A DNA stretch of 64,000 bases, from sequence record PV191315.1; one strand, written 5' to 3'. Of the stretch, positions 17,419 through 35,505 are shown piece after piece; position 1 is the first letter of the stretch, and every line of letters begins with the position of its first letter. The translations under genes were made by a program, and so were the position numbers. Source of the DNA: Escherichia phage vB_EcoM-P3322. Under the pieces are notes generated by a model. That model searched no databases. It saw nothing but the letters and a program-made list of their open reading frames with translations, and was not told where the DNA came from.

Positions 17419-17435
17419 AAAGAGAGGAGAAAAGA

Positions 17436-18410: not shown

Positions 18411-18416
18411 TAAATG

Positions 18417-18440: not shown

Positions 18441-18452
18441 TAGGAGAGACTT

Positions 18453-18803: not shown

Positions 18804-19045
18804 AATACTTGTTGGTTGTGTTTGAAAATATTTGTTTTGCAATAGGGTTGTTTGTTGTAATTTTTGTATTGACAAGCGTAATCAACGGCAGTAAAGTGAG
18901 TTTATACCGAGATGGAGAGCAACTCTATTGCTTCTCTGGAGATTTCAAACACAGATGTATTAATAGTCAAAATGAGGAAAGCAAATATGAAAAAACTAGC
19001 CCTGATTTTAATTGGTTGTATCTTTTTAACAGCTTGCGAGGATGA
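18800..19045 (+). CDS. small protein with N-terminal TM helix; overlaps next gene in another frame
   Basis: Track ORF 81 aa; ATGA overlap with upstream gene; TM FAIGLFVVIFVLTSVI; reality uncertain because of 59-nt overlap. Confidence 0.3.
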   Translation: MKYLLVVFENICFAIGLFVVIFVLTSVINGSKVSLYRDGEQLYCFSGDFKHRCINSQNEESKYEKTSPDFNWLYLFNSLRG

Positions 19046-19424: not shown

Positions 19425-19438
19425 TAAGGAGAAAAACA

Positions 19439-20032
19439 ATGACAATTTCTATTCGTACTTCCATCGTAGGTGTTAAAAGGTTGCCTAATGCTTTGCAAAT
19501 CACACGCGCTTTGAGGGATACATTCTCTGCTGTGGACGAGCATAAGATGCTTGATAATCTTTCAAATTGGCCCTATTTCCATTATTTTAAAAATGAAGAT
19601 GACGAGTTTATAGACGCTGTTTCTTATGGTTATGATTTCGGTAAGGAGGTTTCTGCTGAAGAATTTGTAGCTATGGTGTTCCCAAACGGTTTGCCTACTC
19701 GCAGTAAACGTAAAAAAGGACCAAAAAACAAGAAACGTGCTACTAATAAAGCTACCATTTTCTTTACTGATGGCACACAATATACGATTAAAGATTTTGA
19801 AGAGGTATCTTATACAGCAGGTGGGAATCTTTCTTTCTACACCATCAAAAAACAAAACTCTACGTTCAGCCATGTTTCTAACATGATTGAAATGTTAGTA
19901 GAAGATATTGAAAGCGTGGCTGTGTTAGGTATGCATAAAAGCTTTTTAATTACAAATATTTCAGATTTCAGTGCAAGTTTATCTGGCCCTGATTTTGAAG
20001 CCACGACCACGCATTTCGCTTTTAAGGTGTAA
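19439..20032 (+). CDS. hypothetical protein
   Basis: Track ORF 197 aa; SD AAGGAGAAAAAC. Confidence 0.55.
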   Translation: MTISIRTSIVGVKRLPNALQITRALRDTFSAVDEHKMLDNLSNWPYFHYFKNEDDEFIDAVSYGYDFGKEVSAEEFVAMVFPNGLPTRSKRKKGPKNKKRATNKATIFFTDGTQYTIKDFEEVSYTAGGNLSFYTIKKQNSTFSHVSNMIEMLVEDIESVAVLGMHKSFLITNISDFSASLSGPDFEATTTHFAFKV

Positions 20033-20035
20033 GTT

Positions 20036-20626
20036 ATGCATACCGAGAGAGACTTGCAACTCTTGTGGTGGGAAGTGATGCAGGAAATAAAAGAAGATTT
20101 TCCTGCTTACTACAACATGTTACGTGAAGCAGGATATAAAGCTTGTGTTAGAAACAAAGTGAATAACTCTTTCGGTTGGTGCAACTACCGAGATAAAATT
20201 GTTGTTGTAAATTGGCACTTGCATAAGAACTCCACAAGAGATATGATCGTGGATACAATGAAGCACGAAATTGCTCATGCTATTGATGGTTGTATGGGTA
20301 AGTTTAGTAGGCACGGTGCTCATTGGCAAAAACTGGCAGCAGAATTAGGGGCTAATCCTAAAGCCACTTCCAAAGAGCCGTTGAACCACGAATATAAATA
20401 TGTTCTTGTTCTGGTAGATAGGTTTGCGACAAGATGTGTTAGAGGTTATAATCGTAAACCTAATCGCATGTACCCAGGTAAGCAACCTAATATGTGGTTG
20501 AAATCAGATAAAGAAGGGACCGAAGGAAAATTATGGTTGTATAAATGGGACGATTGGGTTAAAGTAGCTAAAGAGTACGGTGTTTCACCATATATAAGAG
20601 ATGCAGAAGAGGAGAATGAAGAATGA
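20036..20626 (+). CDS. SprT-like zinc metalloprotease-domain protein
   Basis: HExxH in TMKHEIAHAI with downstream HGAHW and upstream GWCNYRDKIVVVNWHL, matching SprT-like layout. Confidence 0.5.
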   Translation: MHTERDLQLLWWEVMQEIKEDFPAYYNMLREAGYKACVRNKVNNSFGWCNYRDKIVVVNWHLHKNSTRDMIVDTMKHEIAHAIDGCMGKFSRHGAHWQKLAAELGANPKATSKEPLNHEYKYVLVLVDRFATRCVRGYNRKPNRMYPGKQPNMWLKSDKEGTEGKLWLYKWDDWVKVAKEYGVSPYIRDAEEENEE

Positions 20627-21735
20627 CAAGTCCATTTTTAAAAGCAGCTACTGGTGGTCAGAAGAAGCCTGAAATGAGCGTATTTGCTGCAACAACAGAT
20701 GCAAGTAAATCTGTATTCGCTCCAAGCGTGTTAGATGCCAGTCCTGTTTATGCACCAGCGGCACCGCAAGAAGTTCCAGTTTTGCCTTCTATGACCCGAC
20801 AAGAGATCGAAGAGATTGGGGCAGAGGCAGGAACAACCTTGCGTTCCTTGAATGCCGAGGTATTAAAACATCAACGTAGTAATCAAGGCGATCAGATGAG
20901 TGAACGACTCACAGCTTTGATTAAACAGGCAAAACAACTTGATCCAAACTCTATTAAACAAAGCAAGGGTATTACTAAACTCATTAAAAAAGTTATGGGT
21001 ATGAAAGAAGATCTGTTTGGGGAGTTTGATAATGTTAATAACCGTATTGAAGAGTTGGTAAAGAACCTTCAAATGGATATTCGCAAAGAAGAAGATTCCT
21101 TGGTATATCTTGAAAAGCTACATCAAGCTATTGGACAATATGCTGCAAGTTTGAACCGAGATATGCAGCTTCTAACAGCAACCTATGAAAAAGAAGAACA
21201 AGCTTTGGCTGCTCTTCCAGAAGATGCAGTAGAACAGCGACAAGTGATCCGAGATACTTTGGATCTTCTGGAGATTCGTATTGCAGATTTAAAAGCATTG
21301 CGCCTACTGTGTGTCCAAATGGGACCGCGTGTACAAGGTATGCAAAAAGTTTCTGCAAGCTTAATGCGATCTGCGCGTAACATAGTAAATAATGTTATTC
21401 CTGCTTACTCTGCTAACTTCTCAATGTATATCGAGAGCTTACGTCAAATGAAAGCAGCAGAGACGCAGAATAACGTTCTTGATGAATTTAACCTGGCAAT
21501 TAAACTGGGTAGCGATCTTGCCACACAGAATCAGATCGAAGCAGCAGCACTGGCTAACCGTCAAGTGTTGGATATTGAAACTCTGCGTCACGATCAGGAA
21601 AACTTGGTTAAGATGTTGGAAGAAACTAACCGCATCAATACGGAAGCCCGTGCTGCTCGTGTTGATTATATTAATGAAGTTCAATCTCTGGAAGACGGGA
21701 TGGTAGCTGCTGTGAAACGAGGGCTTGGTAAATGA
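20623..21735 (+). CDS. TelA-like (toxic anion resistance family) coiled-coil protein, tentative
   Basis: 370 aa helical, Gln/Leu-rich with heptad-like stretches; call by size, composition and Ter-gene context only. Confidence 0.35.
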   Translation: MTSPFLKAATGGQKKPEMSVFAATTDASKSVFAPSVLDASPVYAPAAPQEVPVLPSMTRQEIEEIGAEAGTTLRSLNAEVLKHQRSNQGDQMSERLTALIKQAKQLDPNSIKQSKGITKLIKKVMGMKEDLFGEFDNVNNRIEELVKNLQMDIRKEEDSLVYLEKLHQAIGQYAASLNRDMQLLTATYEKEEQALAALPEDAVEQRQVIRDTLDLLEIRIADLKALRLLCVQMGPRVQGMQKVSASLMRSARNIVNNVIPAYSANFSMYIESLRQMKAAETQNNVLDEFNLAIKLGSDLATQNQIEAAALANRQVLDIETLRHDQENLVKMLEETNRINTEARAARVDYINEVQSLEDGMVAAVKRGLGK

Positions 21736-21929
21736 GAATCCGTATCTATATAATTGATGAAGACATTGGTGTCCGTTATGATGACGAAAAACGATTCGCA
21801 CCGATGGGAGGTATATATCCCCCAAGTGTTCTAGCAGTTTGTCGTGATTGTTATATTTATGAAGGTTGTCGTAACTTCCGTAAATTCGAACTCCTTGCAG
21901 ATATTGACTTCAATGAGGAGGAGGAGTAA
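21732..21929 (+). CDS. hypothetical protein
   Basis: Track ORF 65 aa; ATGA overlap. Confidence 0.45.
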   Translation: MRIRIYIIDEDIGVRYDDEKRFAPMGGIYPPSVLAVCRDCYIYEGCRNFRKFELLADIDFNEEEE

Positions 21930-22099
21930 TGAAAATATTACGAGTGAATATTGAAACTGCTTGGTGTGGATGCAATGAGGTTGTGGATATCGAAATTGAA
22001 GATGATATGTCTCAAGAGGATATAGAAGATCTTGCGCACGAAACCTTTCAGGATTATTGTAATTACGGGTTCCATATTTTAGAGGAGGAAGAAGATGTT
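21929..22099 (+). CDS. small acidic hypothetical protein (56 aa)
   Basis: Not in track; TAATG overlap upstream, SD GAGGAGGAG, stop overlaps next start; MKILRVNIETAWCGCNEVVDIEIEDD... Confidence 0.4.
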
Positions 22100-22298
22100 T
22101 AACTACGATAACGATCCTAATATTATCCAGTTAACCCGACAAGAACTGATCACAATCATTGAAGATGCTTTTATTGATGGCTGGAATACACAAGATAATG
22201 ACTGGGGTGGACCCGAAGCTTTTCTGGAACATCATAAAACTTATGGAGACTCTTGTGAAACCACTGTAGCTCTTGATAATCTGAAGGAGGGTTTGTAA
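22095..22298 (+). CDS. hypothetical protein
   Basis: Track ORF 67 aa; SD GAGGAGG. Confidence 0.5.
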   Translation: MFNYDNDPNIIQLTRQELITIIEDAFIDGWNTQDNDWGGPEAFLEHHKTYGDSCETTVALDNLKEGL

Positions 22299-22861
22299 TG
22301 GGTTGTTTTAGCTTTTTGTGCAAAGAATCGGGCAAAGCTGCCCTTTCTACTTCTTTCGACGGATCACCTTGCTACCTCTTTCTTTTGAAGGACGGTGTTG
22401 TTATTGAAGAGATGTATGGCAACTATGATAGTTATGGTTGTGTTTTCTCTGGAAAGGAGGATGAAAACGGCGTTCGTGAACGGTTCGAATGGGCTATGGA
22501 TTGGGGTAAGGTTTGTGATTTGATGCATTCCTCAAATCCAAGGGACGGTATCGCTATGGTGCTGGAAGAGTACTTTACAGGTGAAATCCCTACAGAACAA
22601 TCTGACGGAGATCCTAACCAAGGTTGGGGTGATGGTGAAGAAGATCCAGATTGTTTTTTCAGCACAGAAAAGAATAAGTTTAAACGTGTTGACAACCCTT
22701 ATCACAAAGTGCATAATACTCTCATTGAAACAGAAGATGACAAGATGGAAATTGAAGAAGATGATCCTCTTGTAACACTTCCTATAAGTGAGTTACAAAA
22801 GATCACTAAGGAAGCTTACGATTTGGGCTTCAAAATTGGTAGAGGAGGTATGCGTGTTTAG
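22298..22861 (+). CDS. hypothetical protein
   Basis: Track ORF 187 aa. Confidence 0.5.
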   Translation: MGCFSFLCKESGKAALSTSFDGSPCYLFLLKDGVVIEEMYGNYDSYGCVFSGKEDENGVRERFEWAMDWGKVCDLMHSSNPRDGIAMVLEEYFTGEIPTEQSDGDPNQGWGDGEEDPDCFFSTEKNKFKRVDNPYHKVHNTLIETEDDKMEIEEDDPLVTLPISELQKITKEAYDLGFKIGRGGMRV

Positions 22862-23132
22862 ATTCAATATTCAAGAAGAAAAAAGTCAGGATTTACCTAT
22901 TGCTTTCGAAGATCTTGACGTAGGGGCCACATTCATGTATTATGATGCCTATGAAGACGCAGGGTTGGATACCTACCGTAACTTGGTGTTCATTAAAAAT
23001 TCCACAAACAGTGCGATTTGTATTAATGGATCACTAGCACAACGAGGCTATACTCATTGCATCCCACCAGATACAAATATGGTGGAAGTAGATTTAGAAG
23101 TTACCAATATTACACTTAAGAAGGAGAAATAA
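22854..23132 (+). CDS. small protein, paralog A (of 24154..24423)
   Basis: Track ORF 22788..23132; start moved to GTG 22854 after AGAGGAGG; shares DLDVG(A/D)TF and EV(D/E)L.VT.ITLK with paralog B. Confidence 0.45.
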   Translation: MFRFNIQEEKSQDLPIAFEDLDVGATFMYYDAYEDAGLDTYRNLVFIKNSTNSAICINGSLAQRGYTHCIPPDTNMVEVDLEVTNITLKKEK

Positions 23133-23133
23133 T

Positions 23134-23928
23134 ATGTCCGAGAAAATCAGCCTGAAAAAACGTCAAGAAAACCTTGCTTTCTCTCTGAAAAAGAATAAGA
23201 ACCTGAACGAAGGTAAGATTGTTCTTCGTGTAGCATGTGCTCTAGATATTTCTGGTAGTATGCATGGTCTATATTCTAGTGGGGTAGTGAGTGATTTTGT
23301 AGGTAAACTGCTTCCTTTTGGTATGCTGTTCGACGATAATCAACAAATTGATATGTGGGCCTTCAATACGAGTTCCCAAGAGCTTACTCCAGCAACAGCA
23401 GATGTTTACGATGACTATGTTGGTAAATGTATGCGTAATGTTCGTATCGGAGGTGGAACAAATTACGCCCCTGTAATGGCGGATATCTACGATGAGTATT
23501 TTGGCACTGTTACTAAATATATTACCACTAAACAAGTGGTACAAGAGGAGGCTCCAAAGAAAGGTTTCTTTAATCGTCTACTTGGTAAAACTGAAACAGT
23601 ATCTGTAGAGCGTGAAAAGGTCGTAGCTGTATCTGAACCAGGTGCTGACGTTACCCCTGGTGTTGTATTCTTCCAAACGGATGGTGAGAATGGTGATCCT
23701 AGTGCTGTTCGTCGTCTTATCGAAGAGAATAAGAATAAACCTATTTATTGGTTCATGGTTGGCGTTGGTAATGAGAAGTTTGGCTTCCTGAAAGAACTGG
23801 CAAATGCTTATGATAATGTTGGTTTTATTGGTATTAAAGATTTAGACTTGACAGATTCAGAGCTTTATGACAAACTCTTATCTGAAGAGTTCGGAGAGTG
23901 GGTTGTTAAAGTAGGTGCTAAAAAATGA
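23134..23928 (+). CDS. von Willebrand factor A domain protein, TerY-like
   Basis: MIDAS-type LDISGSMHG after hydrophobic strand VLRVACA; N-terminus EKISLKK echoes TerD N-terminal motif. Confidence 0.5.
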   Translation: MSEKISLKKRQENLAFSLKKNKNLNEGKIVLRVACALDISGSMHGLYSSGVVSDFVGKLLPFGMLFDDNQQIDMWAFNTSSQELTPATADVYDDYVGKCMRNVRIGGGTNYAPVMADIYDEYFGTVTKYITTKQVVQEEAPKKGFFNRLLGKTETVSVEREKVVAVSEPGADVTPGVVFFQTDGENGDPSAVRRLIEENKNKPIYWFMVGVGNEKFGFLKELANAYDNVGFIGIKDLDLTDSELYDKLLSEEFGEWVVKVGAKK

Positions 23929-24173
23929 TCGACGAGCTTGCCTCTCAAGTCATAGAAAATTATTGGCGCGAGAGAGAAGCTTTCATTATGCGCAGTCTCA
24001 AAGAGTATTTCATTGGGACTGTGCGAATGGAAGATATTGTAAGTAGAGTAGAGATTCATGTATGGCCTGATTATGAAGAATGGGTTGACAAAGAAAATGA
24101 AAATGCTATAATTCTTCGTATATACAAACCGGAGATAACATTAGGAGGAAGAAGTGTTAAACTTCGAAATTGA
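23925..24173 (+). CDS. hypothetical protein
   Basis: Track ORF 82 aa; ATGA overlap. Confidence 0.45.
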   Translation: MIDELASQVIENYWREREAFIMRSLKEYFIGTVRMEDIVSRVEIHVWPDYEEWVDKENENAIILRIYKPEITLGGRSVKLRN

Positions 24174-24423
24174 TGAGCAAAAAGTAAATAAACGATGCCT
24201 TACCATTAAAGATTTGGATGTAGGAGATACTTTCGTCTATGAAAATGCATTTGACGAAAATGGTTTAGACCTTAGTGAAATCATTGTTTATTTAAAAGTA
24301 GATGATGGGGAAAACGATTATTCTGCTGTAGAACTAAACCATCATGCACAATTAGTATCAATCCAAAACACATCTAAGCTTTTGGAAGTAGAATTGACTG
24401 TAACTGGTATTACACTTAAATAA
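24154..24423 (+). CDS. small protein, paralog B (of 22854..23132)
   Basis: Track ORF 89 aa; GTG start after AGGAGG; paralog motifs as above. Confidence 0.45.
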   Translation: MLNFEIDEQKVNKRCLTIKDLDVGDTFVYENAFDENGLDLSEIIVYLKVDDGENDYSAVELNHHAQLVSIQNTSKLLEVELTVTGITLK

Positions 24424-24438
24424 TAGAGGAGACAAAAG

Positions 24439-25041
24439 ATGACTGATAAAATTTCCCTGAAAAAAGGCTCTAGCGAAAAAATTTCCCTGAAGAAAGTTGC
24501 TCCGGCTCTGAAAGAACTGCGCCTGGAATTCTCTTGGAAATCTGATTCTAAACTGGATCTGGATGTAAGTGCACTGGTTTGTCGTCATAATGCCGCTGGC
24601 AATCCTGAAATGTTGTCTGCACGTCATCTGGTTTGCTATGCTAACAAGTTTGATCCTGAACGTTCTACCTTCGCTGGTGACGATGTTCGTGATGGAACTG
24701 GTAGCATGGAGCAGATTGATATTACTCTGGCTAAAATCTCTCCTGATGCACAAGAGATTGCCTTTGTTCTGACCATTGATGATGATACAGGTCTGAAACG
24801 TTTTGGTCATGCTTCTGAAGGTATGCTTAAAATCTTCGACTCCGAGCGCAATGTGGAAATTCTGGATTTTGACTTCCTGGCTCCTGAAGTAGCTGGCAAC
24901 ACAATCTGCCACGTGGCTTCCTTGGTTCGTGAAGATGGGGAATGGAAGCTGAAAGCATATGGTGTAGGTAAAGCTGGTCTGGATATTTGTGATGTGGTGA
25001 TGGCCTTCGGTGGTAAAAAAGAATGGTATGAATGTCCATAA
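24439..25041 (+). CDS. TerD-domain protein
   Basis: N-terminal KISLKKG..EKISLKK, central Ca-binding-type AGDDVRDGTGS, C-terminal EWKLKAYGVGKAGL all fit TerD; strong host-like codon bias. Confidence 0.65.
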   Translation: MTDKISLKKGSSEKISLKKVAPALKELRLEFSWKSDSKLDLDVSALVCRHNAAGNPEMLSARHLVCYANKFDPERSTFAGDDVRDGTGSMEQIDITLAKISPDAQEIAFVLTIDDDTGLKRFGHASEGMLKIFDSERNVEILDFDFLAPEVAGNTICHVASLVREDGEWKLKAYGVGKAGLDICDVVMAFGGKKEWYECP

Positions 25042-25079: not shown

Positions 25080-25108
25080 TTGCAATAAAGCCTCTATCGT
25101 GTTATACT
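25080..25108 (+). promoter_or_regulatory. candidate sigma70-type promoter (TTGCAA-N17-TATACT)
   Basis: Near-consensus hexamers 30 nt upstream of endolysin-like gene. Confidence 0.45.
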
Positions 25109-25140: not shown

Positions 25141-25662
25141 TTGCTGATAAAAAACTTTGTAACAGTTGCGTTACTATCCTTAACTGCTTTTACATTTACA
25201 CCTGTTGTGGCGAAAGCCGAAGCTGCAAACGTAAAAACCGCTAAAGTAGTTCACAAATGTACAAAGCAATATAATGATAAAATTCTATTAGCTTGTGCAA
25301 TTTACGCAGAAGGTCGCGGTCTGGGTAAAAAAGGAATGAATGCCGTTGGGAATGTGGTAATCAACAGAAGAAATGATACATACTTCCCTAACACAGTCAG
25401 AGGAGTCTTGTTCCAGAAAGGGCAATTCTCATATGCGAAAACTTTTAACGTAACAGAGAAAGATAAGTGGCAGGAAGCAAAAGCAATAGCGGAGCGTTTA
25501 CTTTATTTAGAGAAACATTTTCCTGAATTGCGGTCTGTTTTAGATGTTACTAAAGGTGCTCTATACTTCAAGAAACGGAATATAAGAACACACTGGGAAC
25601 GTGATATGCGTCTTGTTTATCGAGATAAAGTGCATGGTTTCTATCTACCAAAGGGGAGTTAA
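25141..25662 (+). CDS. SleB-like cell wall hydrolase (putative endolysin) with N-terminal signal peptide
   Basis: TTG start after AAAGGAGG; signal sequence LIKNFVTVALLSLTAFTFTPVVAKA; core LLACAIYAEGRGLGKKGMNAVGNVVINRRN typical of SleB-type hydrolases. Confidence 0.55.
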   Translation: MLIKNFVTVALLSLTAFTFTPVVAKAEAANVKTAKVVHKCTKQYNDKILLACAIYAEGRGLGKKGMNAVGNVVINRRNDTYFPNTVRGVLFQKGQFSYAKTFNVTEKDKWQEAKAIAERLLYLEKHFPELRSVLDVTKGALYFKKRNIRTHWERDMRLVYRDKVHGFYLPKGS

Positions 25663-25663
25663 A

Positions 25664-25948
25664 ATGCAAGAAGATAATACTGTTGTTGTAGCAAGTTACC
25701 TGGTTGTCGGTCTTACTGAAGAGGATGTATACTACACCCGTAAGCATTTAGAAGCATACGCTACTTTGTTTATGGAAGATGAAAAGGATGTAGATAAATA
25801 TAGCATTGACATGATCAACGACAGTATTTATCCTTGTATGGTTCTTAAAGTAGATGCTGTGTTGTGGGAGCGTTTTGCAAGGACTCATGATGCTGTAGAA
25901 TGCTCCGCAGTAATGTCTCAAAACAACATTTTAGGGGAGATTCATTGA
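25664..25948 (+). CDS. hypothetical protein
   Basis: Track ORF 25601..25948; start moved to ATG 25664 after AAGGGGAG. Confidence 0.45.
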   Translation: MQEDNTVVVASYLVVGLTEEDVYYTRKHLEAYATLFMEDEKDVDKYSIDMINDSIYPCMVLKVDAVLWERFARTHDAVECSAVMSQNNILGEIH

Positions 25949-26178
25949 TGGGAGAAGTCATTGAAGTCAATTTTCGCACTAAACAGAAAGTGCAAAAATA
26001 TGTCGTTATTAAAAACATTTGCGTTGTCTGCTTCAATACGGTAATATACGACTCACGACGCGGAGAAAACGAAAATGAACCTTACATTGAAATTTCTAAG
26101 AACAAAGGTCAATGTATTTGTAAGAACTGTGCAGTAGCTATTAAGGAGGTTGTAAATGAAAACGCTTGGGACCAATGA
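25948..26178 (+). CDS. small Cys-rich zinc-finger-like protein
   Basis: Track ORF 25900..26178; start ATG 25948 overlapping upstream stop; CVVCFN...CICKNC. Confidence 0.45.
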   Translation: MGEVIEVNFRTKQKVQKYVVIKNICVVCFNTVIYDSRRGENENEPYIEISKNKGQCICKNCAVAIKEVVNENAWDQ

Positions 26179-26347
26179 AACTGGCGAGATCTCTCTTCAA
26201 GAAGTGACAAACGACAAACTGATTAAACTACGGGACGTAGCCCGTGACCATCTCCAAGAATCTTTTAAAGAATATATGGAAGCACGAGATCGTGTGATCC
26301 AAATCCAACAAGAAATGATTAAACGTGGGATTGTAGCTGACAGTTAA
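26156..26347 (+). CDS. hypothetical protein
   Basis: Track ORF 63 aa; SD AAGGAGG. Confidence 0.45.
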   Translation: MKTLGTNETGEISLQEVTNDKLIKLRDVARDHLQESFKEYMEARDRVIQIQQEMIKRGIVADS

Positions 26348-26363
26348 TATAACGGAGGGGAGA

Positions 26364-26927
26364 ATGATTTATTATATTACTCCCTATCTGACAGGAAATA
26401 TCGGCAAGGCTATCAATGAAGCCATTGCCGTTCTTCCAGATGATAGTTGGGTGTGTTTAAGAGATACCGATACAATGTTCCTCCTACCTGATCAACCGTC
26501 TATGCTTGAAGAGCTTGTTATGTCAAACCCGCCTTTTGATGTAATAGGTGCAACTTGTAACAGGTTAGGCAGTGGTTATCAACTTTTCTCTAACCAAATT
26601 AACGATGATCCAGATATTCTAAACCATATAGAATATGCTAAGATTGCAAGAGAATATCATAAAGTGAGTGTTGAAGAAGTTCCTTTCGGAACACCTCTGG
26701 CAGGTTTCTTTTTGCTTTTTAGAAAATCATTGTGGAATGAAATTCCTTTCGAAGAAAAATCTATCCAATTCGACTTAATTTTCTCTCGCACTTTACATGA
26801 AAAAGGAAAGAGGTTAGGATTGATGCGGGGAATGTATCTGTTTCACATTTACAGATTAGGTCAAACAAATCCTCAACGGTCTATACATCATTTATTACAC
26901 TGTCATGATCACAGTAAAACTATTTAG
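26364..26927 (+). CDS. glycosyltransferase-like protein (tentative)
   Basis: 187 aa; LRDTDTMF acidic motif; first of four adjacent sugar-transferase-like genes. Confidence 0.3.
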   Translation: MIYYITPYLTGNIGKAINEAIAVLPDDSWVCLRDTDTMFLLPDQPSMLEELVMSNPPFDVIGATCNRLGSGYQLFSNQINDDPDILNHIEYAKIAREYHKVSVEEVPFGTPLAGFFLLFRKSLWNEIPFEEKSIQFDLIFSRTLHEKGKRLGLMRGMYLFHIYRLGQTNPQRSIHHLLHCHDHSKTI

Positions 26928-26935
26928 GAGAGAAA

Positions 26936-27619
26936 ATGGAAAATATTAAAATCGGAGTGGGTGTTATCACTGTAGGTGTCCGTCCACTTAAAGACTACCT
27001 TGTAACAGATCCACGTGCAGATTTTCGAGTATTCAACGATCCAGATCGTAAAGGTGTAGCTTATGCCAGGAATGAACTTATGCACCAGTTTTATGAAGAA
27101 GGTTATGATTATTGGTTTATTTTTGACGATGATTGCTACCCAGTCATGGAGGGATGGGAAACATACTTTGTAGATCAAGCTGTCTCTGGAGGATGGGATT
27201 TCTTTGGTATGCCGGAGTATTTCAAAGATAAAGTTGTTGGAAGCAAAGGAGAAGTTATTCTCTGGGAACTTGCAATGTGTCAATTTGCAATGTATTCTCG
27301 TGCCGTTGTTGAGAAGATGGGTTATTTCCGTCCTTACACTCACGGTTATGGTTTTGAAGATGCTGAATGGGGACACCGTTTGCAAGCTGCTGGTTTGAAT
27401 CATGGTATTCAGGCAACACCTTGTCCACTTCGTATCATGGCTTATATCCACCCAGACGATGTTTTTGGAAACAATCCTATGCCTTTTGCTAACCTGACAA
27501 AAGAAGAGAAAGAGGCTGCTATTGGGATTAACTGGGAAGAATATAAAGCATCTTTAGAGGATATTAAAAATGGGAAAATCCGAATTTCCTATGAGGAGGC
27601 ACTAGCACATGTCAAATAA
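26936..27619 (+). CDS. glycosyltransferase, GT-A-like (tentative)
   Basis: 227 aa; DxD-type YWFIFDDDCYP after a beta-strand. Confidence 0.35.
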   Translation: MENIKIGVGVITVGVRPLKDYLVTDPRADFRVFNDPDRKGVAYARNELMHQFYEEGYDYWFIFDDDCYPVMEGWETYFVDQAVSGGWDFFGMPEYFKDKVVGSKGEVILWELAMCQFAMYSRAVVEKMGYFRPYTHGYGFEDAEWGHRLQAAGLNHGIQATPCPLRIMAYIHPDDVFGNNPMPFANLTKEEKEAAIGINWEEYKASLEDIKNGKIRISYEEALAHVK

Positions 27620-28559
27620 AAAATGGTCTAAACTAAAAATTGATGCAAAACCTCACAGCGGTTGTGACTATCATCGTATTGTTATACCATTTAACAACAA
27701 CAATAATATTCAACCTAAGAAAGATGTTGTTGTGTTTAACCGTATCCACTCTAAAGGTGCAGAATACGTTTTATCTTTGAAACGTCAAGGTGTTAAGGTT
27801 GTTGTAGACTTAGATGATTTTTACCAACTTAATCCAGAACATTATTTAGCAAGTCTATACGAGTCAAACACTCATGCTATTGTAGCTATGGTTAAGCTTG
27901 CTGATGTGGTTATTGTGACTACGGAATATTTGGCATATAAGATCCGTCACTTAAATAGGAATGTTGTTGTGATCCGAAATGCACTTCCTTTTGATAGCGG
28001 ACAATTCACTTTGTCAAATGATCGTTCATCCGGTACCCCTGTTGTATGGGCTGGCGGTGCTAGTCACGAACCAGACTTACGACTAGTCTCTAATACTTTC
28101 GATGATGAACTTCTTACTATTGCGGGATATGAAGCATCACAAAGCATCACGGGACAAGAGTGGATTAAGATTCGCAGAAATTTACCAAATGCCAAATATA
28201 AAGCCGCTGTAAAAGATTTAGATAATTACATGAGTGTTTACGAAAGTCATGCTATTGCTATAGCTCCTTTGGTAGATAATGATTTTAATAATTGTAAAAG
28301 TAATCTCAAAATCCTGGAAGCTGGAGCAAAAGGTATTCCAATTGTTTGTTCTAAGGTATTACCTTATTTTAACCCTGTAGATGCTCGCGCTGTTGCTTAC
28401 GCAGAGAATAAAGCAGAATGGCATTACGAAATTGTTAAGCTTCTTCGCAATCCAAACTATCGGGAAGATCGTGGCTTGTTCTTGGCTGAACATGTTCGAA
28501 CACATTATAATCTGGCAGATGCAAACGAGTTGCGACGCCAGGTTATTGAAAGTTTGTAG
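27609..28559 (+). CDS. glycosyltransferase, GT-B fold, paralog 1
   Basis: 316 aa; C-terminal NNCKSNLKILEAGAKGIPIVCS resembles the GT4-type EGFGL..LEAMA.G.PVI motif. Confidence 0.45.
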   Translation: MSNKKWSKLKIDAKPHSGCDYHRIVIPFNNNNNIQPKKDVVVFNRIHSKGAEYVLSLKRQGVKVVVDLDDFYQLNPEHYLASLYESNTHAIVAMVKLADVVIVTTEYLAYKIRHLNRNVVVIRNALPFDSGQFTLSNDRSSGTPVVWAGGASHEPDLRLVSNTFDDELLTIAGYEASQSITGQEWIKIRRNLPNAKYKAAVKDLDNYMSVYESHAIAIAPLVDNDFNNCKSNLKILEAGAKGIPIVCSKVLPYFNPVDARAVAYAENKAEWHYEIVKLLRNPNYREDRGLFLAEHVRTHYNLADANELRRQVIESL

Positions 28560-28566
28560 GTGAAGT

Positions 28567-29511
28567 ATGGGACAAATAATTCTTGACAATCGTAACGGAA
28601 TCAATTATAGTGTCTGCGATTTCCATAGGGTAGTGCTGCCTTACTCAAGGCAGTTCTCTTCACAACCTAAACACAACGTTTTCGTTTTTAACGGGGTGCC
28701 AACAAAAGGTAAAGAGGGCTTTTTAGCCCTTAAAAACCTAGGCTTTAAAATGGTTATGGATTTGGATGACTCTTTAGTTATTCCAAAAGGACACATGTTA
28801 GAAGGTATTTTTGAATCAGGTATTCGTGAACATTTAAAATGGTTTTTAGAGCACAGCGATCTCGTTACAACTACGACACCTGCTTTGCAAGTTGAACTTT
28901 CACAATACAATGATAATGTGCACATAATCCCTAATGGACTTCCTTACGATGAAGGTCAATTTGTGTTGACCCGTGATCGCTACTCCAAAACTCCATTAGT
29001 CTGGGCTGGAAGTGAAACACATAAACAAGACTTGGCTATCTTGCCCGATTTTGGTAAAGATCTTACAATATGTGGTTTTCGTAGGGATTCTGAAGTTTTA
29101 AGTAGTCGTGAATGGTCTGTGATCAGAGAAAATGTAGCACCAACTTGTGTTTATGAAGGTGTAAGACCATATGCCAACTACATGGAATCTTACGATGGTC
29201 ATCAAATCAGTCTTGCGCCATTGATTGATAACGTGTTTAATAATGCAAAAAGCAATCTTAAAATTCTTGAGGCAGGTGCTAAGGGTTTACCTTTGATCTG
29301 TTCTCCTCGTGAGAATTATCATACACAAGAGTTTAAAGATTTGTTATTCTTTGCTGAAACACCTTCCGAGTGGAAAGATATTACGGAATACTTATTAAGT
29401 GCTCCCGATGTTTGCATGGAGAAAGGATTAGCATTAGCTAAGTATGTCAGGACTCATTATCACATTGATGTGTTGAATGAGCGTCGTAGACTTTTATTTG
29501 AGGAGCTATAA
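28567..29511 (+). CDS. glycosyltransferase, GT-B fold, paralog 2
   Basis: 314 aa; NNAKSNLKILEAGAKGLPLICS; collinear similarity to 27609..28559 (CD(Y/F)HR(I/V)V.P, VVWAG/LVWAG). Confidence 0.45.
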   Translation: MGQIILDNRNGINYSVCDFHRVVLPYSRQFSSQPKHNVFVFNGVPTKGKEGFLALKNLGFKMVMDLDDSLVIPKGHMLEGIFESGIREHLKWFLEHSDLVTTTTPALQVELSQYNDNVHIIPNGLPYDEGQFVLTRDRYSKTPLVWAGSETHKQDLAILPDFGKDLTICGFRRDSEVLSSREWSVIRENVAPTCVYEGVRPYANYMESYDGHQISLAPLIDNVFNNAKSNLKILEAGAKGLPLICSPRENYHTQEFKDLLFFAETPSEWKDITEYLLSAPDVCMEKGLALAKYVRTHYHIDVLNERRRLLFEEL

Positions 29512-29789
29512 TGATTAACACTTTTGATTTTGAATACACCACTCGTAACGGGAAAGCTTTAGTCGTGGAGGTGGATTACTATTATGAAGAGCCTAACCCG
29601 CTTTCTCGTGAAAGTGATTGGGATTACCACGGAGGGCTTTTAATTGACGGTATTCGTTTTTATGAAGGCTCTACAGAAGTTTTTGAAAAAGATTTAAATG
29701 TAACTGTAGCAGAAATTGCTTTCCAATTTAGAAAGCATATGGAAGAACTAGAAGCAGAATATATGATGGAGACTAACGAACCATTTTAA
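29511..29789 (+). CDS. hypothetical protein
   Basis: Track ORF 92 aa; TAATG overlap. Confidence 0.5.
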   Translation: MINTFDFEYTTRNGKALVVEVDYYYEEPNPLSRESDWDYHGGLLIDGIRFYEGSTEVFEKDLNVTVAEIAFQFRKHMEELEAEYMMETNEPF

Positions 29790-29801
29790 CAGGAGAACAA
29801 A

Positions 29802-31580
29802 GTGTCGCACATTATAACTAAATATGGATTTGATGTTGATCTTAGCAAGGAAGGACATACAGGTTGTCCGCGCTGCATGAAAAATGGCAAGGATCGCTCT
29901 CGTAATAACCTGATGGTTTATGGATTAGATTCTAATGGAGAGCATAAAGGTGCTAAGTGCTTTGCGTGTGAATACACTATTCCTAGCGTAGAATGGTTAC
30001 GAGAAAATGGTGAAGTTTTAGAAGAAGAGGAGGAGATTGTGGGTTCGGAATTTAATAAACAGATTCATCGTAAAATTGTTCAAGAAACATCAACCAACCC
30101 ACGTGGTTATCGAGGCATTAAAGAAAAAGTTTCATCTTTCTATGGTGTTCGTTATGAATACCGCCAGGAAGGGGATCAGATGGTAGTAGAAAGTTGTTTA
30201 TATCCAACTACTATCGGTAAAGAATTAGTTGGTTTTAAGCGTCGTATTCATCCTAAAGATTTCAGTAAACCTATTGGTCAAGTAGGTAAAGATGTAGATC
30301 TTTTTGGACAAATTCGTTTTGCAGACCGTTCTCATACTGTGGTAATTACAGGTGGTGAACACGATGCTCTGGCAGCTTATCAAATGCTGTCTGAAAACTT
30401 GGACAACAAATATGAACTTCCAGCAGTAGTTAGTGGCACAACTGGTGAAACCAGTATGTATAAACAAGTTCAGGCACAATATCCTTTCTTTGAAAAATTT
30501 AAGAAGATTATTGTTTGCATGGATAATGACAAAGCAGGTAATGAGGCATTTGAAAATATTGTTAAGGTGTTGCCTCGTAACAAAGTCTACCGTATGCAGA
30601 TGGATCTTAAGGATGCCAATCAGTATCTGGAAGAAGGTCGTGCAAAAGATTTCGTAAAAGCTTTTTGGAGTGCTCGTCTATACACCCCAGCAGGTGTTTA
30701 TGCTTCTAATGTCTTGTATGAAGCTGCATTAGAATGCTTGGAATCCAAGATGATTACCTTGCCTCCTTTTATGCGTGTTGCTGCAAATATGCTGGGTGGT
30801 GGTTTAGTAGAGGAAGAGATTACAGTTATCCTGGCGAAGACCAGTATCGGTAAAACTTTGATGGTGAACGAGATCACCAAACATATTATTGTTGCGCACC
30901 CAGAACATACCCTAGGTATTCTGTCCTTGGAAGCAACTTATAAGAAATATTCTCGTAACCTGTTGTCCTCGTTCCTGCATATTCCTCTACACAGGAAAAC
31001 ACCGGAAGAGAAATTTCAAATCTTGGAAGAGAATAAAGAAAAAATCCTAGATTTTTACGAAAGAGAAGATGGATCACCACGTTTTTATGTGTGTGATGAT
31101 CGTGGAGCAGATGTGGAGTCTATCAAAGAAAAAGTTTTGGAGATGATCATCTATTTTGGAGTAACAATTCTTGTTATCGACCCTTATTCTGATTTGCTTT
31201 CTGGTATGGATGTTCAAGCCCAGGAAGAGTTAGCAACATGGTTGAAGCGCATCATGAAAGAGTATGCTATAACTATTATTGTCATCTCACACGTTAAGAA
31301 ATCGGCTAATGGTGGCAATGAACACTTAACAGAGGACGATGCAATGGGTAGTAGTTTCTTGGCTAAAGGTGCTGGTATTACCTTGGCTTTGGAACGAGAT
31401 AAAGCCGCTGAAGACCCTGTAGAACGCAATACGACTCATTGCTTTATCCTAAAAAACCGTGAGTTCTCAGAAACTGGTCCGGCAGGGCAGTTTTACTATG
31501 ACATTAGAACTGCAACTCTGCATGACAAAGAGCAGTATTTCAACAATCCTGCTAATTTGCCTACGGATAGCAACTATTAA
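29802..31580 (+). CDS. bifunctional DNA primase-helicase (T7 gp4-like)
   Basis: N-terminal zinc ribbon CPRCMKNGKD...CFACEY; TOPRIM-like VVITGGEHDALAAYQ and CMDNDKAGNEA; helicase Walker A AKTSIGKT and Walker B-like LVIDPY. Confidence 0.7.
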   Translation: MSHIITKYGFDVDLSKEGHTGCPRCMKNGKDRSRNNLMVYGLDSNGEHKGAKCFACEYTIPSVEWLRENGEVLEEEEEIVGSEFNKQIHRKIVQETSTNPRGYRGIKEKVSSFYGVRYEYRQEGDQMVVESCLYPTTIGKELVGFKRRIHPKDFSKPIGQVGKDVDLFGQIRFADRSHTVVITGGEHDALAAYQMLSENLDNKYELPAVVSGTTGETSMYKQVQAQYPFFEKFKKIIVCMDNDKAGNEAFENIVKVLPRNKVYRMQMDLKDANQYLEEGRAKDFVKAFWSARLYTPAGVYASNVLYEAALECLESKMITLPPFMRVAANMLGGGLVEEEITVILAKTSIGKTLMVNEITKHIIVAHPEHTLGILSLEATYKKYSRNLLSSFLHIPLHRKTPEEKFQILEENKEKILDFYEREDGSPRFYVCDDRGADVESIKEKVLEMIIYFGVTILVIDPYSDLLSGMDVQAQEELATWLKRIMKEYAITIIVISHVKKSANGGNEHLTEDDAMGSSFLAKGAGITLALERDKAAEDPVERNTTHCFILKNREFSETGPAGQFYYDIRTATLHDKEQYFNNPANLPTDSNY

Positions 31581-31610: not shown

Positions 31611-31639
31611 TTGACAACTTTACGGAAGAGACTTATACT
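31611..31639 (+). promoter_or_regulatory. strong candidate sigma70-type promoter (TTGACA-N17-TATACT)
   Basis: Near-consensus hexamers with optimal spacing, about 30 nt before 31673. Confidence 0.55.
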
Positions 31640-32113: not shown

Positions 32114-32908
32114 TTGAGCAAGTTGAATACACTTGATCAATATTACACTAACCCCGCTTATGCGGGGTTCTTATGTGATAAGATCAAAGAAATTTTTGGA
32201 GAGGAAGCTAACTACGTAGAACCATCTGCGGGAGAAGGAGCTTTCTCTTCTTGTTTTAAAAACATAACTTCTTTTGATATTGACCCTAAGTTTGAAGATT
32301 GTATTGAGGCAGATTTTTTAGCTCAATCTGTTGAGTCTGTTGGCAGTGTAACTGCTTTTGTCGGTAATCCTCCGTTTGGAAAAAATGCTAGTCTTGCCAT
32401 TAAGTTCTTTAACCATTGTGCTGAAATGTTGGATAACGAAGGTGGTATTTGTTTTATCTTGCCTCGCACATTTCAAAAAATCTTTTTTGCACACAAACTA
32501 AATCCCCACATGCATCTTCTTTACGAAGAAGAATGTCCAAAAGGATCTTTTATTCTTCATGGGGAACCTTGGGATGTTCCTTGTGTATTCCAGATATGGA
32601 TTAAACGCAACGAGAAGCGTTCTCCCGTTGTTTTAGGAGAGAATAGACTGTTCGTATTAGGTAACAGTAAAGACTACGATATAGCCGTTAGGAGAGCGGG
32701 AGCAAGTGCAGGTAAAGTGTTATCAGAAGAAGATTCTTTATCTGAAGCATCTACCTACTTTTTAAAAGCCTTGACTTCTGATCTTAAAACACGTATCATT
32801 GAGGCTTACCCGTTACTTAAAGCTGAAGCTAGTAAAACTGCGGGAGTAAGAAGTTTAAGTTTAAAAGAACTTCAGTGGGTTCTGGAGAACATTAGAAAGG
32901 AGGAATAG
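32114..32908 (+). CDS. DNA N6-adenine methyltransferase-like protein
   Basis: 264 aa; catalytic-type FVGNPPFGKN; N-terminal YYTNP..AGFLCD consistent with AdoMet-binding region; TTG start after AAGGAGG. Confidence 0.5.
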   Translation: MSKLNTLDQYYTNPAYAGFLCDKIKEIFGEEANYVEPSAGEGAFSSCFKNITSFDIDPKFEDCIEADFLAQSVESVGSVTAFVGNPPFGKNASLAIKFFNHCAEMLDNEGGICFILPRTFQKIFFAHKLNPHMHLLYEEECPKGSFILHGEPWDVPCVFQIWIKRNEKRSPVVLGENRLFVLGNSKDYDIAVRRAGASAGKVLSEEDSLSEASTYFLKALTSDLKTRIIEAYPLLKAEASKTAGVRSLSLKELQWVLENIRKEE

Positions 32909-35505
32909 TGAGTAAGTTTACATGGGATATTGAAGCAAACGGATTGTTGAATAATGACACTATTGATTATTTAGCTAGTCCTTATCGTCTCAAAGACACA
33001 TTTCAAATGCACTGTATTGTCTTAGAGAACCATGAAACAGGAGAAATAGTAGCTTTCCACGATGGCCCTAAATACATCTTTGATGGGCGTCCTTATGAAG
33101 AGTCAGATGGTAAATACACATATGTTCTTAAAGAGTATGTGGCGCAAGATTACACACATTTTCAACTAAAAGATTTCCCAGATTTTATTAATCATGAAGG
33201 TTATTTTAAAGACAAGCCTGAATATCTGGTTGAAATGGCTGTGGCTCACAACGGTATCAACTACGACTGGTTGGCTACAAAACTGTTTTATGGATTAGAT
33301 TACAGTGTTAAATATAATACGTGGGGCAAAAATAAGGTAAAACTTATTGACTCTTTGATTTTGAGTAAAGTGTTAAACCCAGATAGAAAGATTGAGGGCA
33401 AATCAGGACATAGTTTGGCAGCACTTTCTCGAAAAGCAGGTGGTGATGTAAAAATAGATTTCCGTAAAGAGATTCCAGAAGAAGATCGATTTAAGACTTT
33501 TGCTGCGGATATGCTTTATTACTGTATCTATGACAACAAAGCCAATACGAGCGTATATAATTACCTTATGGAAGAATGGGGTGATTATGATAAATGGGAA
33601 GGTCCATTTGAACTTGAACAACGTGTAGCAGACATTATTACACGCCAGGAACACCGTGGGTTTGCTTTTAACATGAAACAAGCAGAAGAGAACCTTGCTT
33701 TTTTGGATGCAGAAATGGAGCGTCTTCGTTTACTCGTTGAGCCTATTTTGCCACCTAAACCAGCAACAAAAGGTTATCTTAAGGCTTTTATTCCACCTAA
33801 GTTGCAAATTAAAAAGAACTTAGAGCCAACTAACCATATGATCAATTTTGCTAAGAAACACGATGGTCATTTGGAAGAGAGGGATGGCGATTGGTGGTTA
33901 GTTATGTTGGGGAAAGAGTGGAAACTGCCAGTTGCAGCAGATGAACCTCTATGTGATCCTAACATCCCTGCAACATTGAACGATACAACCCATATTAAAA
34001 ACTGGCTTGTAGGATTAGGTTGGGTACCGTCTGAATATAAAGATAAAGACTTGACTCTTAAATCTGGCACCAAGATTAAAAAGAGCGAGGAAGAACTTCA
34101 GAAAGGTATTCGAGCTTACGTTGAGCAAACTCTATCTTCTAATTTTTGTCAGGATCGTTGTGATCATCTGGAGTGCACACCGGAAACCCTGGAAAGGAAG
34201 ATTCAAGAGCGTATAGCAAAAGGTAAAGGTCGCGGTCTTAAAGTATTGACTAACCCATGTTTTACCAAAGGTCAGGAAAAAGAAATTTGTCCTAACCTGC
34301 AAGCTTTGGGTGAGAAGTTTCCTTATGCTACACAGATTGTAGAATACTTAACGTATAAGCATCGTAGGAACTCTATTTTAGGTGGCGGTGCTGATTGGGA
34401 AGAAGACGAAGAAGATCAAGAATACGATAAAGGTTTCTTAGCCGCAGTAAGGGCGGATGGGCGTATTCCTACCCCAGCCGCTACATGTGATGCTGCAACC
34501 TCTCGTATGAAGCATAGATCTGTAGCTAATATTCCTCGTGTCACATCTTTGTTTGGATGGGAGATGCGTAACTTGTTTGGTGTAGAAGTTCCTAAATACT
34601 TCCAGATCGGCTACGACTTCGACTCTTTGGAAGCAAAAATTGAATCACACTACTGTTGGCGGTACGAGCCGGAGCCACACGAATATTGTAACGCTCTGTT
34701 GTTAGAGAAACCTAACGATGTTCACACAATGATGGCAAAACGTATCACTGAAACTATTGGACGTAAATTTGAACGTAGTCCTGCTAAATCTGTTAAGTAT
34801 GGTATTACCTATGGTGCACAAGCCGACAAGGTTGCTAAAACAATTGGTAGCGATAAGTTTACAGGTCAATTGGTGTTTGATGCTTTCTGGGAAGCTGCAT
34901 TCCCATTGGCGCGTCTTAAAGAACGTTTAAACGATTTCTGGGTTAAGACTGGTAAACAATATGTTTTGGGTATTGACGGTCGTAAGGTTCCTACTCGTTC
35001 TGCTCACGCGATTCTTAACTCTCTGTTCCAAAGTGGTGGGGTTATCTGTGCTAAACGTGCAATGGTTATTTATGACGACATGATCGAAGAAGAAGGACTA
35101 AGTGTTGACTTCTTTAAAGATGACTGGAAGAATAAAGACTTCGTACAACAAATGATTGCATATCACGATGAAGCCCAGCTTGAAGTTTCTCGTAACCTTG
35201 TAGAATTCAAATGGTTTTCACCTGAATCGTTAGGTTGGAAGAAAGTGGACGATCCTGAAGAACAAAAGAAAATTGATAAAGAATGCCTTGCTAAAGTTGA
35301 AGAATGGAAGCATAATAAGGAAAAAGAGACGGGGCAAATTTGGGCTAACATTCATGAATCTCCCAAAGGTGGATGGTTTACAGCTTATAGTCGAGCAGGA
35401 GAACTTGCTGCTTTAGCTGTTACTAAAGCCGGAGAATTCTACAATCTTAATGTTCAGCTTACTGCTGGATATGATGTGGGTAACTCCTGGGCCAGTTGTC
35501 ACTGA
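32908..35505 (+). CDS. family A DNA polymerase with 3'-5' exonuclease domain
   Basis: Exo I FTWDIEANGL; motif B RSPAKSVKYGITYGAQ; motif C IAYHDEAQLEV; GTG start after GGAGGAA. Confidence 0.8.
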   Translation: MSKFTWDIEANGLLNNDTIDYLASPYRLKDTFQMHCIVLENHETGEIVAFHDGPKYIFDGRPYEESDGKYTYVLKEYVAQDYTHFQLKDFPDFINHEGYFKDKPEYLVEMAVAHNGINYDWLATKLFYGLDYSVKYNTWGKNKVKLIDSLILSKVLNPDRKIEGKSGHSLAALSRKAGGDVKIDFRKEIPEEDRFKTFAADMLYYCIYDNKANTSVYNYLMEEWGDYDKWEGPFELEQRVADIITRQEHRGFAFNMKQAEENLAFLDAEMERLRLLVEPILPPKPATKGYLKAFIPPKLQIKKNLEPTNHMINFAKKHDGHLEERDGDWWLVMLGKEWKLPVAADEPLCDPNIPATLNDTTHIKNWLVGLGWVPSEYKDKDLTLKSGTKIKKSEEELQKGIRAYVEQTLSSNFCQDRCDHLECTPETLERKIQERIAKGKGRGLKVLTNPCFTKGQEKEICPNLQALGEKFPYATQIVEYLTYKHRRNSILGGGADWEEDEEDQEYDKGFLAAVRADGRIPTPAATCDAATSRMKHRSVANIPRVTSLFGWEMRNLFGVEVPKYFQIGYDFDSLEAKIESHYCWRYEPEPHEYCNALLLEKPNDVHTMMAKRITETIGRKFERSPAKSVKYGITYGAQADKVAKTIGSDKFTGQLVFDAFWEAAFPLARLKERLNDFWVKTGKQYVLGIDGRKVPTRSAHAILNSLFQSGGVICAKRAMVIYDDMIEEEGLSVDFFKDDWKNKDFVQQMIAYHDEAQLEVSRNLVEFKWFSPESLGWKKVDDPEEQKKIDKECLAKVEEWKHNKEKETGQIWANIHESPKGGWFTAYSRAGELAALAVTKAGEFYNLNVQLTAGYDVGNSWASCH

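Follow-up and report, generated by a model that had tools for sequence, protein, structure and literature searches.

The genome of Escherichia phage vB_EcoM-P3322 (sequence record PV191315.1) raises a question that its annotation does not answer: what does a virulent coliphage glycosylate with four glycosyltransferases (GTs) of its own? We have analysed a stretch of 64,000 nucleotides of this genome (the window, to which all positions refer unless another record is named), in which four adjacent GT-like open reading frames (ORF1 to ORF4) occupy positions 26364-29511. An earlier note, made from the letters alone, had picked out this block and left its substrate open. The genes are real and correctly read as four GTs, including a tandem duplication of a gene of the GT-B type, and the comparative evidence suggests the virion rather than DNA as the target of glycosylation.

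A megablast search with the region 26000-30000 matched 67 phage records, the closest of them Escherichia phage vB_EcoM_ASO2A (99.8% identity), with phAPEC8 at 99.0%. By these identities, the source phage is a Phapecoctavirus (Stephanstirmvirinae), that is, a virulent myovirus of ca. 150 kb, and the window corresponds approximately to positions 22.1-86.1 kb of phage tuntematon. The reading of the four genes as GTs is already public (RefSeq phAPEC8 gp071-074, tuntematon and others), and the orthologs in phi92-like phages carry the BASEL labels “putative glycosyltransferase” and “putative disaccharide synthase.” We found no experimental work on these enzymes in the literature searched. The published statements on them amount to a speculation about DNA rhamnosylation (PMC7552041), the wording “putative dTDP glycosylation machinery” (PMC8594841), or a modification of surface polysaccharides.

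Four glycosyltransferases, two of them a tandem pair

The four genes are indeed present where the earlier note had placed them, all on the + strand and tightly packed, with intergenic gaps of -23 to +16 nt and a Shine-Dalgarno-like sequence before each of them. The GC content of the module (0.382) is like that of its flanks. All four proteins matched PHROG families annotated as glycosyltransferase. The Pfam results were much weaker: ORF1 had no match, ORF2 stayed below threshold and the two GT-B proteins fell near it; NCBIfam gave zero matches for the GTs.

The first two genes, proposed earlier as GT-A-like candidates, keep that assignment. ORF1 (26364-26927, 187 aa, phAPEC8 gp071; phrog_14179 at 8.5e-113) is a minimal GT-A enzyme with a single Rossmann-like alpha/beta/alpha fold of the nucleotide-sugar-binding kind. 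Its DXD motif (D34-T-D36, within RDTDT, nt 26460-26474) is invariant in 23 homologs and presumably acts in catalysis. ORF2 (26936-27619, 227 aa, gp072; phrog_2456 at 1.2e-78) is an acidic protein (isoelectric point, pI, 4.9) in which R45-N46, D64-D65-D66 and Y138-G-x-E141-D142 show little or no variation among 17 homologs. The DDD motif noted before (nt 27125-27133; FDDD spans nt 27122-27133) and the downstream E141-D142 pair (within YGFED, residues 138-142, nt 27347-27361) are invariant in all 17, a pattern that we read as GT2-type. Its Pfam matches were all below threshold (TAGT, GT2 and Glyco_transf_7C), with Glycos_transf_2 reaching 13.3 bits against a curated cut-off of 23.3. Across the family, GT2 was matched by 6 of the 17 members at E up to 0.01 (best 3.5e-5). 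No relationship was detectable between ORF1 and ORF2, also when their profiles were aligned with hhalign. Further hhalign comparisons of both profiles with the cluster of PLOD-type GTs, with other GT-like clusters found as neighbours (see below) and with gp108-110 of mycobacteriophage Che8 gave only the expected relationships, so that ORF1 represents a distinct GT-A family.

ORF3 (27609-28559, 316 aa, gp073; phrog_7162 at 3e-149) and ORF4 (28567-29511, 314 aa, gp074; the same family at 1.9e-145) are GT4-like GT-B enzymes and, as had been claimed, collinear paralogs, with 41% identity over 303 residues (E=5e-79). Both have two Rossmann-like domains with an interdomain cleft, and the structural neighbours of ORF3 include the small-molecule GTs BshA, TreT, sucrose-phosphate synthase and SenB. 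The residues invariant in the family are, in ORF3 numbering, H22-R23, D67-x-D69-D70, H78, N124, H153, D156 and KSNLKxLE (KSNLKILE, residues 230-237, nt 28296-28319, in ORF3 itself). All of them are retained in ORF4 (H20-R21, DLDD 65-68, and KSNLKILE at residues 228-235, nt 29248-29271). The attribution of a GT4-type C-terminal motif to the pair holds in part. Of the classical EX7E, only the second Glu is present (E237 in ORF3), with Cys or Ala eight residues upstream, and the family therefore has a variant of the motif. With Pfam Glyco_trans_1_2, ORF4 just passed the cut-off (25.2 bits against 25) and ORF3 stayed below it (22.8 and 20.4 bits), while PF13524 was matched by 16 of 22 family members at E up to 0.01.

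Neither the four proteins nor the flanking small ORFs contain a 19-residue window resembling a transmembrane segment (maximum Kyte-Doolittle value 1.65), and for this reason ORF1-4 are probably soluble. Searches of PDB sequences with single sequences and profiles of ORF1, ORF2 and the GT-B family returned nothing useful. One match, to the designed TIM barrel 7mcd, was discarded as a repeat artefact.

The module in other phages and prophages

The GT-B family is encoded by more than 567 viral loci in IMG/VR, and in 185,579 species genomes a pattern-limited search returned 15 loci, of which those inspected were prophages. We analysed the gene context of 88 loci by calling their ORFs, searching with HMMs and clustering all against all. 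Genes of the ORF1, ORF2 and ORF3 types recur in unrelated small phages and prophages (of Serratia, Pseudomonas, Chitinophaga and Cellulophaga), where they adjoin the head and packaging genes or lie among them, and this recurrence shows the module to be a mobile cassette, a point that is new in this analysis. An ORF2-type GT-A gene stands beside the GT-B gene in 49 of 86 loci. GT genes accompany packaging or structural genes in L007, L010, L012-L015, L017, L039, L043, the seven loci of lineage A and phage phi18:2, all described below, and do not do so in the window.

The most complete version is that of a Serratia prophage (L007), which carries counterparts of ORF1, ORF2 and ORF3, arranged as in the window, with 41, 36 and 51% identity, respectively. 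There the GT genes overlap or almost touch, and they are flanked by a lysis cassette and by HNH, TerS, TerL, capsid and portal genes. In four Pseudomonas prophages (L012-L015) an ORF2- and ORF3-type pair lies directly upstream of genes for a phage metallopeptidase, DUF2280, TerL and portal, and in a P22/Sf6-like contig (L010) the same kind of pair is found between TerL and portal. A Chitinophaga prophage (L017) has the series primase-helicase, GT-B, HTH protein, hexapeptide acyltransferase, DUF7448, ORF2-type GT, TerS and TerL. The seven loci of lineage A run from an XkdF-type prohead protease through GT-B and a scaffold-like protein to a putative major capsid protein (MCP), with the portal further downstream. 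In L043, TerL and a gene of the portal cluster are followed by GT-B, ORF1-type, ORF2-type and PLOD-type GTs and a Methyltransf_24/CmcI-like methyltransferase, while another lineage has GT-B, GT-A, PLOD-type GT and methyltransferase genes directly upstream of TerS and TerL. In L039 the GT-B gene adjoins that of a head-tail adaptor. Besides additional GTs (among them the PLOD type), the partners in such loci are often of glycan-tailoring types, namely proteins like sugar O-methyltransferases (CmcI/rhamnosyl O-methyltransferase-like) and hexapeptide acyltransferases.

Independent support for this context comes from the ORF1 family, which has 977 representative clusters and occurs stand-alone or fused to TOD1/MUCI70-like GT, GT2 or Methyltransf_24 domains. 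In Cellulophaga phage phi18:2 the ORF1-type domain makes up the C-terminal half of gp39, which adjoins the Methyltransf_24 protein gp38 between portal/minor capsid and prohead protease/MCP genes. The gene of gp38 (L108:7868-8335) is labelled “DNA methylase” on the strength of PF13578 (Methyltransf_24). Within this head module it overlaps the gene of the ORF1-type GT, and homologs of gp38 at other loci match the CmcI/rhamnosyl O-methyltransferase family; these two observations make a sugar O-methyltransferase more likely than a DNA methylase.

Duplication and hybrid GT-B genes

The single GT-B protein of the Serratia prophage is closer to ORF3 (51% identity) than to ORF4 (39%), which makes ORF3 the ancestral-type copy and ORF4 a derived duplicate. 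In some relatives (L109:4001-4945; also P0045, P0046 and P0052) one hybrid GT-B gene replaces the tandem pair. The hybrid of L109 changes cleanly and in frame from ORF3-type to ORF4-type at about codon 140, and other hybrids switch at the KSNLKILEAGAKG motif. Assembly chimeras were considered as an explanation and are unlikely, because the paralogs do not have a single 12-nt identical stretch in common; the hybrids look like the products of real unequal recombination. A single GT-B copy is also found in some Klebsiella relatives.

Sugar supply

No rml genes lie within the window. In tuntematon, rmlB, rmlA, rmlC and rmlD are found at 121.3-124.6 kb, ca. 70 kb away from the GT module. By tblastn, RmlD and the GT-B family gave equal record counts in four name groups (Escherichia 106, Campylobacter-labelled 5, Phapecoctavirus 3 and Justusliebigvirus 3). 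Both are conserved across the whole subfamily, and their pairing reflects lineage-wide co-conservation rather than independent co-occurrence. Elsewhere, an RmlB-like gene adjoins the module in L034. The rml genes had been noted by Olsen et al. 2020 (PMC7552041), who speculated about rhamnosylated hydroxymethyl bases.

Several records with other host names (the Campylobacter-named phages B15, A145, A110a and others, Acinetobacter phage vB_AbaM_ABPW7 and “Dompiswa phage” TSP7_1) resemble E. coli Stephanstirmvirinae in this region. ABPW7 and TSP7_1 have 98-99% nucleotide identity over the region, and the ORF3 protein is 98.7% identical in B15 and ca. 71% in A145 and A110a. The host labels of these records are probably due to contamination or misassignment.

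Candidate acceptors

The reading that we prefer, tentatively and as the likeliest of those considered, is a cytoplasmic pathway that builds a glycan step by step on one or more virion proteins, with donors that probably include dTDP-L-rhamnose made by the phage. The soluble GTs (two unrelated GT-A enzymes and the duplicated GT4-like GT-B) would act in sequence and produce a short glycan. Virion proteins of the phage itself, at least one of them, would most likely receive this glycan in the cytoplasm, where they build up ahead of particle assembly or while it proceeds. The first sugar would be linked to the protein by one of the enzymes, and elongation or branching of the chain would fall to the others. 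At least one donor would probably be dTDP-L-rhamnose from the phage rmlB/A/C/D genes, and the duplication that gave ORF3 and ORF4 probably adds a linkage or a sugar specificity. The analysis itself establishes the enzyme classes, their catalytic-type motifs, the relationship of ORF3 to ORF4, the absence of membrane segments, and the module's mobility and surroundings in other phages, while we infer what receives the glycan, which donor is used, in what sequence the enzymes act and what is gained, perhaps a glycan coat that affects stability, adhesion or immune recognition. The grounds for this reading are the identity of the enzymes as GTs and their probable solubility, the position of homologous modules beside or inside head and packaging genes in other phages, the glycan-tailoring nature of the partner genes, the conservation of rmlBACD in the same genomes as the module, and a precedent in mycobacteriophages.

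That precedent is provided by Che8, Corndog and Myrna, which use GTs of their own to glycosylate proteins of the capsid and the tail tube, according to the passages that cite Freeman 2023 in PMC12363180 and PMC11256854. Like the module described here, that of Che8 is a cluster of several phage-encoded soluble GTs, three adjacent ones (gp108-110), after which comes an HNH gene at the end of the genome. If the Che8 terminase lies across the genome end, as we presume, the position of the cluster would match that of the module homologs in the Serratia and Pseudomonas prophages. By tblastn, ORF2 matched (E ~1e-8) GTs in more than 300 mycobacteriophages of cluster F, the part matched being the N-terminal GT2 domain of Che8 gp108 (23% identity, pairwise E=8e-4). 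The two share a GT2-type domain and the motif YG(x)EDxxW..RL (“YGEDADW” in gp108), and beyond this domain gp108 has a C-terminal extension that in our reading is putatively methyltransferase-like. However, neither ORF1 nor the GT-B paralogs have detectable homology to gp108-110, and among the GTs of Che8, Corndog and Myrna the similarity of ORF2 to the gp108 N-terminus was the only one found. Given that the similarity is of a generic GT2 kind and that ORF1 and GT-B are without Che8 counterpart, the module is analogous, not orthologous, to the Che8 system. It also differs in belonging to a virulent 150-kb myovirus of a Gram-negative host and in lying away from the structural genes. Giant viruses likewise glycosylate their capsids and fibrils (chlorovirus PBCV-1 A064R, mimivirus), although their hosts are eukaryotic, their capsids are unrelated and the likeness is one of fold and architecture only.

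Several points weigh against a virion acceptor. The literature searched contained no experiment on glycosylation of Stephanstirmvirinae virions. In the window itself the module is not beside head genes; it stands in a block with Ter-type genes, the endolysin and replication genes, and it is apparently co-transcribed with the endolysin and the primase/helicase from a sigma70-like promoter. Gene context is guilt by association, and cargo genes, too, are commonly found in the region beside the terminase. Besides, kinship among the phage lineages makes several of the supporting loci less than fully independent of one another, and the MCP and scaffold assignments of lineage A are weak (SU10_MCP at E=0.003). 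The homology to the Che8 enzymes is confined to the generic GT2 domain, with none for ORF1 and GT-B, and the commonest Pfam match of the ORF2 family, although sub-threshold, is TAGT, a family of DNA glycosyltransferases. A negative glycoprotein stain of E. coli phages published in 2025 (PMC12894461) was considered as a possible refutation and set aside, the phages concerned being unrelated (JEP7, a Rosemountvirus, and JEP6, a Tequatrovirus).

An alternative that we consider rather unlikely is a glycan of the host envelope. In this case the GTs would act from the cytoplasmic side on intermediates carried by undecaprenyl or by the lipid A-core (O-antigen, enterobacterial common antigen, colanic acid or lipopolysaccharide core) and alter the surface of the infected cell or lysogen, so as to block superinfection or to stop the progeny from adsorbing to debris. 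Receptor biology and the structural neighbours of the enzymes favour it. However, lysogenic conversion can play no part in a virulent phage such as this one, and the authors of BASEL deem a complete modification of surface glycans within a lytic cycle futile (PMC11990801). The prophage copies run in the same direction as late, lysis and packaging genes and overlap them or are packed closely against them, unlike autonomous morons, and a location between prohead protease and capsid genes would be hard to account for. Neither a flippase, a polymerase nor a membrane GT accompanies the module. The Gtr system (GtrABC) uses membrane proteins; of such components (the GtrA flippase, GtrB and the polytopic GtrC) we found none, ORF1-4 and the flanking small ORFs being devoid of transmembrane segments. 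GtrABC and TarP of S. aureus, moreover, act in lysogens, whereas here the phage is virulent and the prophage copies of the module are inside late operons.

Improbable, in our view, is a hypermodification of DNA in which rhamnose or another sugar would be transferred to a hydroxylated base, as in the glucosylation of 5-hydroxymethylcytosine by T-even phages or its glycosylation by the GTs associated with TET enzymes, which is what Olsen et al. 2020 had in mind. The alpha- and beta-GTs of T-even phages and the arabinosyl-5hoC transferases of RB69 and HY126 need a hydroxymethylase homologous to ThyA, or a hydroxylase, and render the DNA resistant to restriction (PMC13326640). Here neither the precursor enzyme nor the resistance was found, and ORF3 is nearer to generic GT4 enzymes. 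The earlier statement that no hydroxymethylase is visible in the window holds, no homolog of it or of thymidylate synthase being seen there, and it extends beyond the window to the annotations and tested candidates of the reference genomes, which contain no hydroxymethylase, ThyA-type or TET-type gene. Specifically, no hydroxymethylase or ThyA homolog is annotated in phAPEC8 or tuntematon, which have only a ThyX-like protein, and tblastn with a ThyA query was negative (tuntematon was covered outside positions 88001-100499). Near the genes annotated as “Dcm” and “DNA methyltransferase” in the reference genome there was no Pfam match to TET/JBP, C5-methyltransferase or hydroxymethylase families, and the “Dcm” protein itself matches no Pfam family. 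Neither a C5-methyltransferase with 5mYOX/TET nor a ThyS partner was found in the window, among the candidates from the reference genome, or among the recurrent neighbours of the 88 loci (not every neighbour was profiled); the methyltransferases seen in this search were of the ParB-N6/N4 type only. The relatives are reportedly also sensitive to restriction. The phi92-like phages have rml and the same four GTs (ca. 70% identity at the protein level), and the BASEL study calls them “exceptionally susceptible” to restriction-modification systems (PMC8594841; also PMC10844046).

The likeness to TAGT (Pyle et al. 2023 preprint) is what ORF2 offers to this alternative, since both have a GT-A-type R..DDD..ED signature and 12 of the 17 ORF2 homologs match the family (best E=1.1e-4). 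However, the match of ORF2 itself to PF20691 reached 19.5 bits against a cut-off of 27.5 and covered residues 32-68 only (ca. 37 residues around the DXD), the residue after ED is Ala rather than Tyr or Phe, and the acidic pI of the protein also speaks against a DNA substrate. Neither PMC13326640 nor the 2023 preprint mentions these phages.

We give a still smaller chance to another cytoplasmic acceptor, be it a host protein (for takeover or anti-defence), a small molecule or a nucleoside-like product of the Ter-associated PRTase/HAD/Macro genes. In this subfamily a Ter-type cluster (HAD, PRTase_3, Macro, TerC, TelA, vWA-TerF and TerD) is found in synteny with the module, apparently in one transcriptional block, and the small-molecule GTs among the structural neighbours of ORF3 would fit. 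However, none of the unrelated phages examined has Ter genes along with its GT module, which shows the two to be separable, and a functional link between them was rejected on this ground. The number of different GTs (three or four) and the tailoring enzymes that often accompany them suggest an oligosaccharide over a single glycoside, and nothing points specifically to a host protein.

Highly improbable, finally, is that the module, supplied with dTDP-rhamnose by the phage itself, rhamnosylates DNA by a route without the known ThyA- or TET-type precursors, with a precursor supplied by the ThyX-like protein or with a sparse sequence-specific modification (which could explain the restriction sensitivity of the relatives). 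Such a route would represent a novel type of DNA modification. The ThyX-like protein is the one loose end that keeps the DNA-modification reading alive. It is a divergent protein of 332 aa encoded in tuntematon outside the window (L006:14803-15801), the only thymidylate-synthase-like gene of the lineage, with a Thy1 match of 33 bits restricted to residues 22-174 and a long C-terminal extension, and it adjoins an NT5C-like deoxypyrimidine 5'-nucleotidase.

Gene neighbourhood

The block does lie, as had been described, between the endolysin and the replication genes. Upstream, a SleB-type endolysin (25141-25662, Hydrolase_2 at 1.9e-17) is followed by three small ORFs and then ORF1; downstream of ORF4, one small ORF precedes the primase/helicase (29802-31580). 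A consensus scan placed a promoter-like site (TTGCAA-17-TATACT, with an extended -10 TG) on the + strand at 25080-25108, in a 99-nt gap upstream of the endolysin, and no terminator-like site on the + strand from 25141 to 30681. The next promoter-like site, at 31611-31639, coincides with a promoter annotated in phAPEC8. A putative transcription unit comprising SleB, the three small ORFs, ORF1-4, gp075 and the primase/helicase would start at the first, sigma70-like site.

The small ORF downstream (29511-29789, + strand) encodes an acidic gp075-like protein of 92 aa (pI 4.2; phrog_4240 at 6.4e-33) and is translationally coupled to ORF4. It is kept downstream of the GT-B pair in four Stephanstirmvirinae-like contigs (L008, L009, L011 and L109), has no homolog in the Serratia prophage and is missing from the prophage versions of the module, and can be counted as a member only tentatively.

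The endolysin gene starts with TTG, and the hydrophobic N-terminus of its product (MLIKNFVTVALLSLTAFTFTPVVAKAEA) resembles a signal peptide or signal-anchor, a feature that suggests export independent of a canonical holin; no holin was identified near this gene. Beyond the primase/helicase, the gene at 32114-32908 encodes a probable N6-adenine DNA methyltransferase (NPPF motif and a weak Eco57I-type match) and is translationally coupled to the DNA polymerase gene (32908-35505).

Further upstream, positions 15159-25041 hold a complete phage-borne Ter-type cluster on the + strand: HAD-like (15159-15815), ComF-like PRTase_3 (15808-16635), Macro (16544-17122), TerC (17436-18410), SprT-like (20036-20626), TelA (20623-21735), vWA-TerF-like (23134-23928) and TerD (24439-25041). 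The cluster is kept in distant Stephanstirmvirinae-like contigs and is not beside the GT module in other phages. The PRTase_3 and Macro matches (15808-17122) agree with the labels “putative phosphoribosyltransferase” and “putative macrodomain protein” that BASEL independently gives to the Ter-associated genes of Escherichia phage PaulScherrer (L026:8057-9623). We take such Ter-associated PRTase and Macro genes to resemble a biosynthetic module predicted to make a nucleoside-like metabolite.

Significance

Phapecoctavirus and phi92-like phages are broad-host-range coliphages; they have been isolated repeatedly, and their use in therapy and biocontrol has been proposed. Without exception they retain the four-GT module and a complete dTDP-rhamnose pathway, for which no functional test was found in the literature searched, and the question can be approached on phages that are to hand (phAPEC8, phi92 and Bas60 of the BASEL collection). 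Should the target be DNA or the host envelope, the module would bear on defence evasion or superinfection exclusion. If instead the virion is coated, virion glycosylation would extend from actinobacteriophages to phages of Gram-negative hosts, as the first case there, with possible effects on antibody recognition, clearance, adherence to mucus and particle stability. The GT-B family, with its more than 567 viral loci, and the ORF1 family, with its ca. 1,000 representative clusters, would then stand as a large, phage-specific signature of glycosylated virions.

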